Source of the DNA: Eledone cirrhosa
Taxonomy: Eukaryota
Direction of reading: 5' to 3'
Length of the DNA stretch: 64,000 bases
Assembly: GCA_964016885.1 (NCBI GenBank)
Contig: OZ024743.1
Location: forward strand, 168,888,001 to 168,952,000
The notes below the pieces were generated by a model. The model made no database searches. It worked only from the letters and a program-made list of their open reading frames with translations, and was not told the DNA's origin. A program made the translations under genes and the position numbers. Below, in pieces: positions 1,638-61,126 of this stretch. Numbering within the stretch: the stretch's first letter is position 1; each line of letters begins with the position of its first letter.

Positions 1638-4600
1638 ATTTTTTTTATTCGCCACAAGGAATAACACGAAGAAAAACATTAGAGACGGCACAGAACAGTA
1701 CAAGACGATACAAAGTGGGTTTTGGGCGTGTAAACAAGTTATAAAAAAATTAGGCTAGAAATCAAAACAATTTAAACAACAACAATTCCCCCCAAAAGGG
1801 GAAACCTCCGAGGGTCACTCGTGGCGAAAACCACACAAAAAGGCCACAGCCACCCTGACCACCAGAGCAAGCACCCTCTCTCAGTTTTCCCACTCCTCAG
1901 TCTAAAGGCGCATACTCAGACCGGGCCCGTTCACTCGATCCAGACTCGCCACATTCACCCACCTTTCAACAAACTTACTAGAAGATAGCACTTGCCTCTC
2001 CACCCTGATTTTCCTCTTCAAGTGAAACTTGAAAAAGTTAATCGGGGATTGGCCGAAGAGGAAAGTGTCCGTATCAACCCTTTCAACCTTGTCAACCACA
2101 CAATCTCTTTCGCCATGGCCTCCAGGCAGATGAAAACTTCCTGCCCTTCCTCCTCTTTAAAGGAGGATGGCGGGGTTATCTGCACAATGGACTCAGTTGA
2201 TGACCGGATCCGACCTACACGCGACAGCAAATGTTCGACATAGATCCACTAGTCACCAATCCTCAAGCACTGAACGAGTGCGGGCAGGACGGTTTCATCG
2301 CCCTGCGCGCGTCTTGGACAGGCTCGGCTGACATTACCTCCGTGCCTGTAGAGCTTATCCCGAACCAGCAACGCTCCCAGGTAGCACTGCCAGGCCAGGG
2401 ATTTCTGGTAATTGTCCATAGGCGCCGGTCTGAAAGTTCTCTTGAAGAGAGCGAACAGCTGATCGTCTTCGACGCCCAGGGTGTCCCCGAGAACGTCGTC
2501 GCTCTTTCCCTCCACTAGCCCTTTATAGAACTCCGAGGTTGATGTTCCACCGATACTAGTGCCCAGCTGGTGGAGGGTGGTGAGCGCTTGGAGACATTTC
2601 AGCTTTCAAGCGTATTCCCTCCGTCTTTTCCTGATCCAGGACTGCAGCTCCGTCAAGGAGACGAGCTGGGGAAAAGCACCTCTGGCAAACGGCGGCCACA
2701 CCTGTTCACCGCCAAGGAAGCACCAGAGATGTAGCAGCCTCAGCGCATGTTTGCGCATCATCAGCCACAGCATGCCTAGTCCTCCACGCAACGGGTGTTG
2801 ACAGCAAATTGATCTTCTAACCATGGGAGCACGTCCCTTCCACAAAAAGCGGAAGAGAAGGGGCTCCATTTTGGTCAGAGGTGGGCGGGGGCAAGGTACA
2901 ACAGTAAGGCAGTAGCAGATGACGGATTCTATGTACGCATTCGCCACCTCCGCCCGACATTTCAAAGACAGTCTCCTCTCGGCCCATTTCTGGGTGCGAA
3001 AGGCCACCCTGTTCGTCACCTCGCTCCGGTTTTTCTCCATCTGGAGGTCCGGACCGAACCAGATCCCAAACAATTTAACAGGTCATTCCGTCCAGCGCCC
3101 CACGACGCTATCGGTCGGCATGGACTTGCCTCTCCAGGTGCCGAGTTGCAAGCCCACCGACTTTTCCGGGTTTATCTTTGCTCCTGTCACCGCTTCGTAT
3201 ACATTGAGAGCGGTGCCGAATAACTGGTCGTGTTTGGTGCTCGACACTACCACGGTGACATCGTCGGCGTAAGCTGACACAGATCTCCCGCATCCCAGTT
3301 TGCTTGGGACTCCCCTCGTCGTCTCCAATTTGTGAAGTAACGGCTCGAGAGCCAGTACGTACAAGAGGGACGAGAAGGGGCAACCCATGGTGGCCCGAGC
3401 GCATAATGCTGAATGGCTGCGACAGGTGGCCATTCACCCACACAATCGAGCAGATGTCGCCTGTGCAACGTTGCGATCCACCCCCTAAACATGGGCCCGA
3501 AGCCGTCCGCCTCAAGGACCGCAGCCAGGTACCGATTGTCGACCCTATCAAATGCTTTAGATTGTTCCAAGTTGATCAGGGCCCTACCCGTGCCAGATTC
3601 CGTAACAACCCTCTCTATGGTGTATCACATGAGATAGAGGTTGTCGTGGATTGATCTGTCTGGGATGGCGCATGTCTGCCACTCTCCCACCAGATCACCG
3701 ACAACAAGCGCCAATCACTTTGCTAACACCTTGACAAAAATTTTAAACTCTGCGTTTAGCAGTGTTATGGGCCTGAAGTTGTCTATAACGTCCCCCTTGT
3801 TCGGGTCTTTTCTCAGCAGCACCACCGCTCCCCAGCTCACAAAACTGAGAATGCTCCCGTTTTTCTGCCAGTTGCAGTAGACATCTGCCAAGAGGTCACC
3901 GAACAAGTCTAGCATATACGCATAAAGCTCTAAGGGTAGACCATCCACACTTGGGGATTTACCCCTCTTGCAGTGAGACATCGCTTCCCGCATTTCACCT
4001 GCTGTTATCGACTTTTCGCACCACTGCGGTCATTGCGAGCCCCGGCAATCCGTCGAGGTATGTACTGAAGTCCATACTCCGATCCGGCCGCCGCAGCTCC
4101 CTAACAATTGAGCAAAGTGCTGTTGAAAAGCCGCACACATTTGCTCGGGTTCGAGCAACATGCACCCCTTTTGCTCAAGCAAAGATCGAATTGTGGACTT
4201 ATTGCCACGTCGCTCCTCCACCACCCGGGCCCATTGAACGGCTTTTGTCCCCTCCTGTCTTAGAGCACGCCCTCTAGCTCTGACGACACAACCTTCATGC
4301 TTTGCGTTGAAGAATTGGTCGAGTGCCAATCTCGCTGCAAGCACGTCGGTTGCGATGCCTGTCCCAAATGCCTCTTCTAGCTTTCTAACTAGCTCTCCCT
4401 CTACTCTATTTTTCCTCTATCACTACTCCTTTGCTAAACCTTATGGATTCTACTCTAATAGCCCTTTTCAGGGTAAACGACCACCTGTTGTTGACGATCG
4501 CACCCGTCAACGCACGCTTAATTAATTCGCTAATCCGGTCTCTGTAAGCTTTGCGCGCCGGGAACGACGCGTTCAGCTTCCAGTAGCAGAGCCCTTGCTT

Positions 4601-5380
4601 ATGGAGTCTATCTAAGTCAACTTCACAGATCACAAATTTGTGGTCCGTGTAGTCGACTACTTTAAATTGTGGACAACCTACACTAGCCTTATCTGTTTCC
4701 CTACAGAATACCCTATCTGTATACGATCTAGATGACCCAATGCGGTTTGCCCATGTCCACATTGGCATATTCGGATAATCCAGCCTCTACCTGTCAGACA
4801 GTTCCAAACGTATGAGCAGGTTGTTGAGGCTTTTACACCTTCCTCCCCTGTCTACTAGCCCCACAAAATCACAGCGTGACATTTTTCTGACGGTGCGGTA
4901 AGTCACTGCCTGTAGCTGCTGGTCCTTGAAAAAATCGGGTGGAGGTTTCAGGGACACTCTATTGTCATTTCTTGTCACCATGGCCCTTGCAACTGCCATC
5001 TCCTCCTCTGTGACTAGCACTGTTTCTATATTTCGGGCCACACCTGCGAAAGAAGTGGCCCCTGTTTCAGCGGCACCATTATTGCTGCCGCTACTGCTGC
5101 TACTGGTCTTGTTGTTGGTGCTGTTGCTGTTGGTACTGCTACAAACGGTGTTACTGGTGTTGTTGGTGTTATCACTGTTGTAGTTGGTTGTGTTTTTAGT
5201 GCCACCGTTGTTCTTCCCGGTGCAATTTGTATTGCTGCATTTGTTGTCATTTTTTCTGTTGTCTGTATTTTGGTTGTCGCTGTTATCGTTGTAGTTGGTG
5301 TGGTAATTCTTTAAATTATTGTTCTCAGTGTTGTCAATGGTGTCTTTGTTCACATTGTTTGTGGTGGTGTTTGTCGTATC
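1638..5380 (-). mobile_element. Tx1-clade LINE copy A, internally deleted (ORF1 Asn/Thr-rich piece fused to mid-APE, then RT and 3' end)
   Basis: WKLNAS, KSP..DGLP, FRPITLLN, KAFDRV, SAYADD, FRFLWKG motifs on the - strand. 3' end abuts an (ATT)n tract. Confidence 0.85.
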
Positions 5381-5617
5381 AATTTATGTAACCCTCCTCT
5401 CAACTTTTACGCCGTTGCCACACGACAGCAGACATATTGCTGAGGAGCATGGCTCAGCCATGTTCTTTTTGTTTTTTTTAATTAATTTTTAAAAGTAAAA
5501 TGTTCAAATATTTGGGCCAAAAGGCCCAGATATTATACTTTCCCCTTCACAGGACAAAGCCCAAGGGCTTATATCCCTTACACAACAAATAATTATAACA
5601 GGTAAATAAAGCGACTT

Positions 5618-59132: not shown

Positions 59133-60253
59133 ACATGATGGTTGCAACTTGATTTCAAGTAATGTCATCACTTGGTACTTAAACGTGAACATCACGGACG
59201 TGGCGTTTTAGTCTAGGGACTTGCCTATGGCTAGTACTACCATAGGTCACAAAAAATATCACATATCAAGAGATGGTTGTGCTTGAATCTTTTTTAAGTG
59301 AGGAAAGGCTTTGCACGGGGTAAATTCCACTCTCTGAACATCGAATGCATTTACCCAAAATGGAGAACTAGTCTACATCATTGGAACAAATGAAGTTGCA
59401 AGTTTTATATCAGAGTGACTAGATAGAGATGTCTTAATGAAGAAAAGGAGTCTCTCGCTCGACATACAAAAAGTACTTTATTGAATGGCCGTTGACTTTC
59501 CTTAGTTATTCCGCCCTTTGGCGGGTTTTGTTTTTCATCTGCAGGGTGTCCAAAATCAGTCACTTCCCCCCAGCAAGCTTGGTGATGTTACCGGTTTATT
59601 CGCCGACGAGACGATCATGCACAGGTTGTACTGAGTTACATCTTACCAGTAGCGCTGAAAAGTGACCTGACAATATACACACACACACACACACACACAC
59701 ACACACACACACACACACACACATACATGGCTGCAAACTCTGCTAAGATTATTGCAATTGCTTGTCAGATTGCAGAAAATGGTGCACTTTTAGGCTACGG
59801 CCAGCCACACGAACCTGTAACATAACCTGAACAAGCAGTGCCTGTGCTTTGAAGGTTTTTTAAGAGGAGAAAGGCCTTGCACTTGACCAATCCCACTCTC
59901 TGAGCATCGAAAAGACTACCCGAAAAGAAGAACTGGTCAACATCATCGGATGCTTCCGAAGCCGCAGAGTTTTTTTTCAGCGTTTCCCACTCCTAGAAAG
60001 GTGTTGTGACAACAACTGGGAGCCGTTCACGCCCAGGTGAAAAACAAAATACTATTTGGATAGCCATTGACTCTGATGAGTTCCTCCGCCCTTTGCCAGG
60101 TCTTGTATTTCATCCCGCAAGGTGTCCAAATACCACCCTCCTCACCAAGCAAGCTTGGTGGTGTTGCCAGTTTAGTCGCCGCCGACCCGACTATGAGACA
60201 GATTGTATTGGGTTAGATCTTACCAGTAGCACACGAGAGGAGAGTGACCTGAC
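59133..60253 (-). mobile_element. Two head-to-tail copies of the same RTE-like short element (59133-59670 and 59725-60253)
   Basis: Both start GTCAGGTCAC..GCTACTGGTAAGAT on the - strand and end (A/G)AGTT(T)GCA(G/A)CCAT next to TG/TATG/TAGG repeats. Confidence 0.6.
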
Positions 60254-60596
60254 ATACATACATACATACATACATACATACATACATACATACATACATA
60301 CATACATACATACATACATACATACCTATTCTAGTGTAGTGTAGGCGGCTGAAGTATTCCAAAAGAATTTGTGTATTTTGACACAGTGTATGGCAAGAGC
60401 GATACTTTGAATTACAGATGCATTTCATCTGATTACCTTCTACACAATTTTCAACTCCTCAATATCACACATACGACCTGAGTCGACGAGAAGCTATGGT
60501 CGAAAGGAATTGCATATGATGCCTTGCATCTTGATCGAACCCTGTACTTTAACACATAAACATGTACATTGAGAGATTACACATGCATAGACATAT

Positions 60597-61126
60597 CCCA
60601 CCGAGGTTGACTTTGCCTTTCATCCTTACGGGGTCGATAAAATAAAGTACCAGTAATGCACTGGTTAATTGCTGGCCTTGTGCCTAAAGTAGAAACAATT
60701 ATATTATAATATATTATATTATATATTATAATTAGCAGAATCGATAGAGCGTCGGACCACACGCTTTGCGGCATATAGTTACATATAGATACATCCCTTT
60801 AAGTTCAAATCCCGCCGAGGTTAGCTCTGCCTTTCATCCATACGGGGTAGCTAAAATAAAGCACCAGTAATGCACTGGGGTCAATTTAAAATGTGCTTAA
60901 ATAAAAAATCATTATATTATATTTTATTGTATCCTGGCGGTGTATTGGCAGTGTCGGTAGAGAGTCGGACGCTATGCTTTGGCGCATAGAGTTACGGCCC
61001 TTGCCATTCTGAGTTCAAATCCCGCCAAGGTTAATTTTGCCTTTCATCCTTACGCGGTCGATAAAATAAAGTACCAGAAACACACTGGGTAATTGCTGGC
61101 CTTGTGCCAAAAGTAGAAACAATTAT
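60597..61126 (+). mobile_element. Cluster of three SINE copies just upstream of a grh exon
   Basis: Partial 60597-60700, variant about 60730-60885, full 60935-61126. Confidence 0.82.

Follow-up and report, generated by a model that had tools for sequence, protein, structure and literature searches.

A non-coding short interspersed element (SINE) of ~190 bp, very numerous in the octopod Eledone cirrhosa, appears to depend for its copying and insertion on the reverse transcriptase (RT) and endonuclease, acting in trans, of a long interspersed element (LINE) of the L1 group, probably of the Tx1 clade; from the sequence comparisons described here this reading is given a probability of roughly two in three. 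The elements were studied in a stretch of 64,000 nt (contig OZ024743.1 of assembly GCA_964016885.1, forward-strand positions 168,888,001 to 168,952,000; hereafter the window, with positions counted from its first letter) and in samples of the wider genome. An earlier note on the window had proposed a Tx1-mobilised SINE from a stem-loop and (ATT)n tail at the 3' ends of both elements, and the four 3' ends that it quoted (LINE copies B, C and A1 and the SINE) were all found where it had placed them. Of this proposal, mobilisation by an L1-group LINE is supported as likely, through the ATTAT target and its duplications, the stacking of SINEs on LINE tails and the lack of a better-matching LINE end, while the Tx1 label is indirect. 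The partnership is supported because an independent result points the same way, namely that both elements land at ATTAT.

The unbiased sample consisted of 120 random 10-kb stretches (1.2 Mb) of the 3.0-Gb genome. Together with the window (1.264 Mb) it was scanned on both strands for a motif defined as a stem of 4 bp, two or more of them G-C, a CT[TC]G[TAG] loop, a spacer of 8–20 nt and two ATT units, with five Markov simulations as the null. The motif of hairpin, loop, spacer and ATT was found at 77 sites, against 0, 3, 2, 6 and 6 in the simulated sequences; 61 of these sites were SINE tails, 14 were 3' ends of the L1-group LINE and 2 lay in other sequence. The layout common to the two elements is a GC-rich hairpin of 3–4 bp with a CUUGU loop, an A-rich spacer with GAAA and repeats in ATT phase. 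In the full-length SINE that ends at position 61126 (+), the sequence following the hairpin through that position is AAAGTAGAAACAATTAT. A BLAST search of the window with one SINE gave 23 matches, 17 of which kept the 3' end, with the exact sequence TGGCCTTGTGCC in 10 of the 17, and the 1.2-Mb random sample held 248 profile matches, many of them 5'-truncated and 155 reaching the 3' end.

A profile built from the last 45 nt of the SINE was run unfiltered over 1.49 Mb, and its matches comprised SINEs, older SINE subfamilies, L1-group LINE 3' ends and a few weak, isolated others. The older subfamilies differ in their upstream sequence and retain the same tail module. LINE ends matched in the same register, at only 7–11 bits and E-values of 0.5–8; the plain-sequence likeness is therefore weak, and its weight lies in position and specificity. 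In local alignments of 30 SINE tails with LINE 3' ends, the scores against four Tx1-like groups were 15.1–18.3, compared with ~11 for shuffled controls, 0.2–3% of which reached the observed mean. The SINE 3' end is homologous to that of the L1-group LINE, with the register conserved and the best score among the three kinds of LINE compared. When sequences of 50 nt preceding each of the 290 ATT runs were clustered, only three recurrent families with variable tails were recovered: the SINE, a CR1-like family and the L1-group LINE in its two most frequent lineages. The earlier note had asked whether another LINE clade would fit the SINE tail better, and in the 1.49-Mb profile search no LINE 3' end matched it better than the L1-group ends.

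A chimeric end was observed at locus L005 (1757-1888, +), where a 130-nt LINE 3' fragment crosses at the common CCTTGTG into the last 27 nt of the SINE. A pattern search of the genome gave no other copy of this LINE/SINE junction, and a LINE subfamily with a SINE-type end was rejected, the L005 copy being unique in the genome. The chimera could reflect a template switch between two RNAs or conversion.

The minus-strand LINEs of the window are four copies from three diverged subfamilies, 68–84% identical (Table 1). Copy A2 carries Exo_endo_phos (5.3e-06) and RVT_1 (1e-16) domains and a zf-CCHC match in open reading frame 1 (ORF1) that lies under the Pfam cut-off (0.0044), the RT fragment of copy B (10790-11416) gave a weak RVT_1 match, and relatives of these copies also contain zf-RVT. 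A 992-aa ORF from locus L193, compared with solved structures, had human L1 ORF2p as its best match (4.4e-50; R2, 9.4e-20). Because of this best match and the Exo_endo_phos/RVT_1/zf-RVT domains, the LINE belongs to the L1 group, with an apurinic/apyrimidinic (AP) endonuclease and an L1-group RT. Its nearest named homologue was a hypothetical protein of Argonauta hians (68% identity), as would suit an octopod host, and no Tx1 or L1 clade names occurred among the matches of the protein search with ORF2. The Tx1 assignment is probable, taken from target-specific insertion, the CCHC-type ORF1, which is consistent with Tx1 (PMC5203782), and mollusc annotations: octopus and mollusc L1-group LINEs are listed as L1-Tx1 or Tx1 (PMC13282606, PMC8967140, PMC10294476), and these lists have no separate L1 class, which was counted as indirect support.

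The last 200 nt of copy C are 76.8% identical to copy B, and further upstream its identity to copy A1 is 70.7%. The 3' end of A1 is merely decayed and not typical of its subfamily, since four better-preserved relatives terminate in CAGCCCTTGTGGCCAATAAAGAAATC(ATT)n and keep the hairpin. In the random sample, a LINE 3'-end profile gave 22 matches, about half ATT-tailed and about half (TATC)n-tailed. Same-strand similarity to ORF2 stops ~290–340 nt before the end in 57 of 86 LINE ends, in ATT and TATC lineages alike, so that the hairpin is the true end of a LINE 3' untranslated region of ~300 nt. Sister lineages at L064, L069, L102, L103, L126, L128, L135 and L157 were observed to carry a (TATC)n tail and to retain the hairpin (e.g. 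TGCC-CCTGT-GGCT); none of the 248 SINE matches of the random sample had a TATC tail.

The comparison of target sites, also suggested in the earlier note, gave ATTAT at both SINE and LINE insertions. Target duplications of the SINE begin with ATTAT, merged with the last five bases of the element, and have a median length of 16 nt. Duplications scoring higher than 95% of mismatched flank pairs were found for 61 of 145 copies, 51 of them with an ATTAT start; with tandem copies removed and the search reaching 14 nt into the SINE, duplications were present in 49 of 99 copies and started exactly with ATTAT in 32 of the 49. ATTAT occurred no more than 30 nt upstream of 125 of 245 SINE 5' ends, compared with 7.0% of random positions, and the opposite polarity, ATAAT, was upstream of only 16 of the 245. 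In this AT-rich genome, C was the target base preceding ATTAT for 24 of 47 SINEs, which points either to a preference of the nick for C/ATTAT or to targets that are often old ...ATC-ATTATT tails.

For the LINE, an exact-word search for duplications (13 nt after the tail, at most one mismatch) gave a single usable case (L008) among 43 ATT-tailed ends. Most LINE 5' ends lie outside the 1.5-kb flanks and the search was for this reason replaced by junctions placed where homology to longer copies ends, an imprecise method in which window copy B was scored as a 216-nt copy though it continues upstream. ATTAT was found just upstream of 9 of 23 such 5' junctions of ATT-tailed LINEs (~8% expected, P=5.5e-5) and the opposite polarity at 2 of 23. 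Clean duplications were seen at L008 (ATTATAGAAATGCAGA), L183 (ATTATTAGCA) and L189 (ATTATTTTAC), and the (TATC)n-tailed copy L064 sits within (TATC)n. Insertion of the L1-group LINE is target-specific, into ATTAT/(ATT)n for the ATT-tailed lineages and into (TATC)n for the one (TATC)n copy. The two elements also stack: a same-strand SINE 5' end followed within 90 nt after 26 of 76 ATT-tailed LINE ends (chance expectation 0.9%), and an opposite-strand SINE followed none of the 76.

In the mechanism proposed here, RNAs of the LINE and of the SINE would alike be recognised by the LINE protein through their 3'-terminal hairpin and spacer, and the protein would nick the bottom strand at an ATTAT site. 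The freed 3' end, the complement of ATTAT, would then base-pair with the RNA's AUU repeats and serve as the primer for reverse transcription, and each new copy would bring a fresh ATT site from which arrays may grow head to tail. Such annealing of the bottom strand would account for the strand specificity, for the rule across LINE lineages that tail equals target, and for self-seeding arrays. L1 offers a parallel: in its target-primed reverse transcription the run of A from which priming on poly(A) takes place also opens the duplication. That the LINE protein reads the hairpin is suggested by conservation alone. A wider proposal is more tentative and placed at a little under even odds: that an L1/Tx1-group LINE reading a tiny 3' hairpin and priming on ATTAT drove an octopod-specific SINE expansion, with a pair that seeds its own targets and builds head-to-tail arrays because every insertion adds a further ATT site to land in, and with a stringent, repeat-primed L1 lineage in animals. 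The L1 group is usually regarded as being of the relaxed type.

Conservation of the hairpin was assessed in an alignment of 91 LINE and 59 SINE ends picked by position and not by pairing. To the LINE ends of the random sample and window had been added 59 3' ends collected by similarity and the four better-preserved copies of subfamily A. In the pooled alignment 88.1% of cells were paired, compared with 70.2% after shuffling, and none of 500 shuffles reached the observed value; the covariation score was 0.474 (0.192 shuffled), and slid partners paired in 12–52%. Pairing persists at the three inner positions, where G-C is exchanged for A-U and C-G for G-C, and 36 of the 112 distinct rows have no outer pair. 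Stems of the 91 LINE ends were mostly GGCC/GGCC (32), AACC/GGTT (10) and AGCC/GGCC (5), with TGCC/GGCA and AGCC/GGCT rarer, and those of 121 SINE copies mostly TGGC/GCCA (43) and TGGC/GCCT (35). The stem-loop that the earlier note had expected of LINE 3' ends is kept in three ATT-tailed lineages (GGCC/GGCC, AACC/GGTT and AGCC/GGCC) and in the (TATC)n-tailed lineages. The note had described a 4-bp stem in both elements; the SINE stem often has only 3 bp.

Several points weigh against mobilisation through a hairpin shared with this LINE. The outer stem pair is absent in 35 of 121 SINE copies, the covariation comes from a small number of independent changes, and the shuffle test is inflated by relatedness among the copies. 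Folding of eight 65-nt ends was not convincing, with energies no better than those of shuffled sequences (z-scores -2.47 to +1.21), and the hairpin was missing from the minimum-energy structure in three of the eight. The common stretch is only ~27 nt and is non-significant as sequence alone in the profile search. SINE tails (median perfect ATT run 6 nt, at least 9 nt in 17 of 121 copies) are far shorter than LINE tails (median 21.5 nt, n=16, unbiased sample). The LINE junctions are inferred from loss of homology, with 14 of 23 lacking ATTAT, and only three LINE duplications are clean. The hairpin appears conserved but is marginal and, if real, must be held by protein. Additional pairing was observed around it: a TAATTG before the SINE hairpin is complementary to the terminal CAATTA (window 61089-61125 and other copies) and forms a lower stem in one predicted fold, and in three LINE lineages an upstream U-rich stretch likewise pairs with the AAUAAAGAAA spacer.

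These features fit an explanation in which the same LINE mobilises the SINE and the hairpin plays no role, the AUU-repeat end pairing with nicked ATTAT and the hairpin likeness being inherited or accidental. The strongest evidence for the partnership is indeed the common ATTAT target and not the hairpin, which is thermodynamically marginal and has lost its outer pair in many SINE copies; LINE lineages with other tails enter the matching repeat, as L064 does, and pairing between tail and target therefore matters. However, the inner three pairs and the CUUGU loop are kept, with exchanges, across diverged LINE lineages and SINE subfamilies, the tail module persists in the older subfamilies despite their different upstream sequence, and the motif is nearly confined to the SINE and the L1-group LINE, which makes a role for the target alone unlikely, although it survives better than the explanations below.

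Less likely again is mobilisation of the SINE by another LINE, either the CR1-like element with an (ATT)n tail (L088, L162) or an R2/R4-like element with (AAT)n, the L1-group likeness then reflecting convergence on the target. The first, a third kind of LINE that uses an ATT tail, was observed at L088 (~900-1159, +, and near 2403-2597, -) and L162 (~1340-1948, +); its ORF ends ...FFTLRVTEAWNKLPASV..., a C-terminal motif from which we take it to be CR1/L2-like, and gave no match in Pfam. It has a variable (ATT)n tail, as this explanation would expect, and CR1 and RTE LINEs are the commonest SINE partners (PMC3747384). Its three copies in 1.26 Mb, with the 3' end GTGCACCTGAGCAC...ACACAATAATTTC(ATT)n, have a different hairpin, and it is rarer than the L1-group ends (3 versus 22 in the sample).

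The R2-like LINE, which extends to the end of the window, has a 3' end ...GACTGAGACTCAAGGAAC(AAT)n with the tail from ~63985, in a polarity opposite to that of the SINE tail. Its putative restriction-like endonuclease part had no match to solved structures, and only the RT points to R2. It was observed tail-to-tail with L1-group ATT tails in 4 of 30 loci (L003, L005, L022, L026), a further point for this explanation; it probably also targets this trinucleotide repeat, in the opposite orientation, and is likely to be the Dong-R4 group annotated in octopus. The known target of Dong is (TAA)n. Many young Dong-R4 copies are reported in O. vulgaris (PMC13282606), which likewise speaks for a carrier of this kind. 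However, the CR1-like and R2-like 3' ends are unlike the SINE tail, with local scores at shuffle level (11.3 and 10.8, against 10.9 and 11.7 for the respective shuffles), and both are absent from the SINE-tail profile matches; nor does the R2-like polarity agree with the lack of opposite-strand SINEs after LINE tails or of any enrichment of ATAAT. Finally, a chance likeness between unrelated AT-rich ends that each hold a short palindrome would fit the agreement at only ~20 of 27 positions, the scores modestly above shuffles and the poor profile E-values, but is very improbable given a motif that both elements carry in matching register at their very 3' ends, that is absent from nearly all other sequence and that comes with a common strand-specific target.

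With mobilisation by the L1-group LINE retained as the best explanation, the earlier description of the same (ATT)n tail is correct for the ATT phase in both elements, whereas the SINE usually ends in just ATTAT, as does the example that the note had given (61122-61126). A possible reading of the short runs is that the SINE RNA is primed internally at AUUAU. Divergence of the SINE from the column majority had a median of 7.0% (interquartile range 4.9–11.2, n=89). Ends of LINE lineage 1 diverged by 1.6%–25%, with a median of 5.2% in 48 mostly similarity-selected copies and 12–25% in four copies from the random sample and window. The ages of SINE and LINE overlap; the LINE sample is small or similarity-selected and too biased for more than this overlap of ranges, which also limits the case for the pair.

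At the 5' end, a transfer RNA (tRNA) origin of the SINE head found no support, as neither ARAGORN (51300-61200) nor Rfam (51300-52300) gave a tRNA match. Copies do show what we take to be B-box-like GAGTTCAAATCC and A-box-like TGGCAGTATCGGTAGAG sequences, presumed from the usual box consensus. A second abundant SINE family with the head and core in common was observed in the window (25627-25695, -, and 33842-33905, +) and at many random loci. It has a long CT-rich 3' part (...TTCTTCCTCTATATCTCTTTCTC...CTCTGGAAGAAATC...) and no ATT end, which suggests tail swapping and a different partner LINE.

Table 1. Coordinates of the SINE and LINE copies described in the window.
Feature	Position	Strand	Details
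LINE copy A1, 5'-truncated	1609..4940	-	decayed 3' end TTCCTTGTGGCGAATAAAAAAAATC ~1662-1637; ATT tail 1636-1609
LINE copy A2, without 3' end	5618..9600	-	ORF1 8578-9573; AP endonuclease 7293-8189; RT 6134-6916
LINE copy B, L1-group (Tx1-like)	9998..13700	-	RT and endonuclease remnants upstream of 3' end
Copy B 3' end	10067-~9998	-	hairpin GGCT-CTTGT-GGCC 10067-10055; spacer AATAAAGAAATTATC 10054-10040; (ATT)n to ~9998
LINE copy C, 5'-truncated, ~680 bp	55318..56016	-	
Copy C 3' end	55364-~55318	-	hairpin GGCC-CTTGG-GGCC 55364-55352, then AATAAATGAAAC; (TAT)n / ATT-phase tail to ~55318
Two co-oriented SINEs	9689..9988	-	full-length 9988-9800 and 5'-truncated 9785-9689, directly in copy B (ATT)n tail
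SINE with shared 3' end	17700..17888	+	
Head-to-tail SINE array	51301..52261	-	six copies, two 5'-truncated; short ATT run at each join
Full-length SINE	60935..61126	+	hairpin TGGC-CTTGT-GCCA 61097-61109; spacer AAAGTAGAAACA; terminal ATTAT 61122-61126
Further SINE copies, plus strand	14224-14289, 25194-25382, 42802-42993, 60592-60702	+	
Further SINE copies, minus strand	37094-37279, 56856-56984, 62042-62137	-	
R2-like LINE	62704..64000; fragments 47686-48823, 52273-~52560	+	RT nearest R2 proteins

Two other kinds of sequence were observed in the window. A repeat ending ...GGATTTTAGTCTTCAAAT-TTATTATTATTAC followed by (TA)n occurs near 38600 (-) and 19380 (-), with 13 further copies at random loci. 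It was rejected as a tail-bearing element, with TTATTATTATTAC fixed and (TA)n after it; this ATT stretch is part of the element because its length is fixed, and the element seems to sit in TA repeats. ORFs for a PIF1-like helicase (PF05970, 1.1e-37; Pif1_2B, 3e-20), broken by stops, lie at 29533-31292 (+), probably starting from 26856, and look like a Helitron-type or PIF1-bearing element.

The kind of system described here is well known: it works like the stringent pairs of the L2, CR1 and RTE clades, and a pairing of Tx1 with a SINE has already been published. Among the stringent SINE/LINE pairs, eel UnaSINE1/UnaL2 and zebrafish ZfL2-1/ZfL2-2 have a 3' stem-loop and end in short repeats (PMC4176376; Kajikawa and Okada 2002, cited in PMC4494074). 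As in these pairs, SINE and LINE have their very 3' terminus and the terminal repeat unit in common, together with a small and here marginal stem-loop, and in the UnaL2 and ZfL2 pairs the LINE protein is thought to read the SINE end in trans. Unlike those L2-clade systems, the octopod pair involves an L1-group LINE, ~27 nt in common, a stem of 3–4 bp and integration tied to ATTAT, and is known from sequence alone. Closer in clade is Tx1-Mar, proposed to mobilise SINEU in crocodilians from a common target preference (Kojima 2015, PMC4494074), where a Tx1-group LINE was likewise inferred as the SINE carrier from a common target. SINEU differs in its heads derived from small nuclear RNA and its Mariner transposon target, compared here with a tRNA-like-looking head, an ATTAT/(ATT)n target and, in addition, a common 3' hairpin.

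Microsatellite-specific Tx1 families include Kibi in (TC)n, Koshi in (TTC)n and crocodilian families in (TTCC)n/(TTTC)n (PMC4494074). As with Kibi and Koshi, an L1/Tx1-group LINE here enters a simple repeat and sister lineages differ in the repeat (ATT and TATC); the repeat units and host are different, and the available portion of PMC4494074 names no SINE partner for families that target microsatellites. Within the L1 clade, maize and sorghum SINEs are paired with a monocot L1 lineage and Chlamydomonas SINEX-3_CR with L1-1_CR (PMC3747384). These are rare cases of an L1-group LINE with a conserved 3' stem-loop common to SINEs, as the octopod pair appears to be, and differ in having plant or algal hosts, poly(A) ends and a longer common region (~80 nt in the alga). 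The earlier note was fair in calling the partnership uncommon, SINE tail-sharing in the L1 group being rare (3 of 58 pairs; PMC3747384), though the partnership is not unprecedented (PMC4494074).

SINEs are reported as the largest or second-largest class of octopus repeats (PMC13282606, PMC8967140), making up 11.6% of the O. vulgaris genome (PMC13282606) and ~40% of octopus repeat content (PMC8967140). No partner LINE for octopus SINEs is named in the literature searched, as far as the available parts of these papers go, and the supplementary libraries of PMC13282606 and PMC8967140 might name one. Identifying the carrier would account for when the octopus SINEs expanded and for their arrays, and would provide a testable candidate for a 3' recognition element in an L1-group LINE; ATTAT/(ATT)n and (TATC)n would also join the simple-repeat targets of the L1/Tx1 group.

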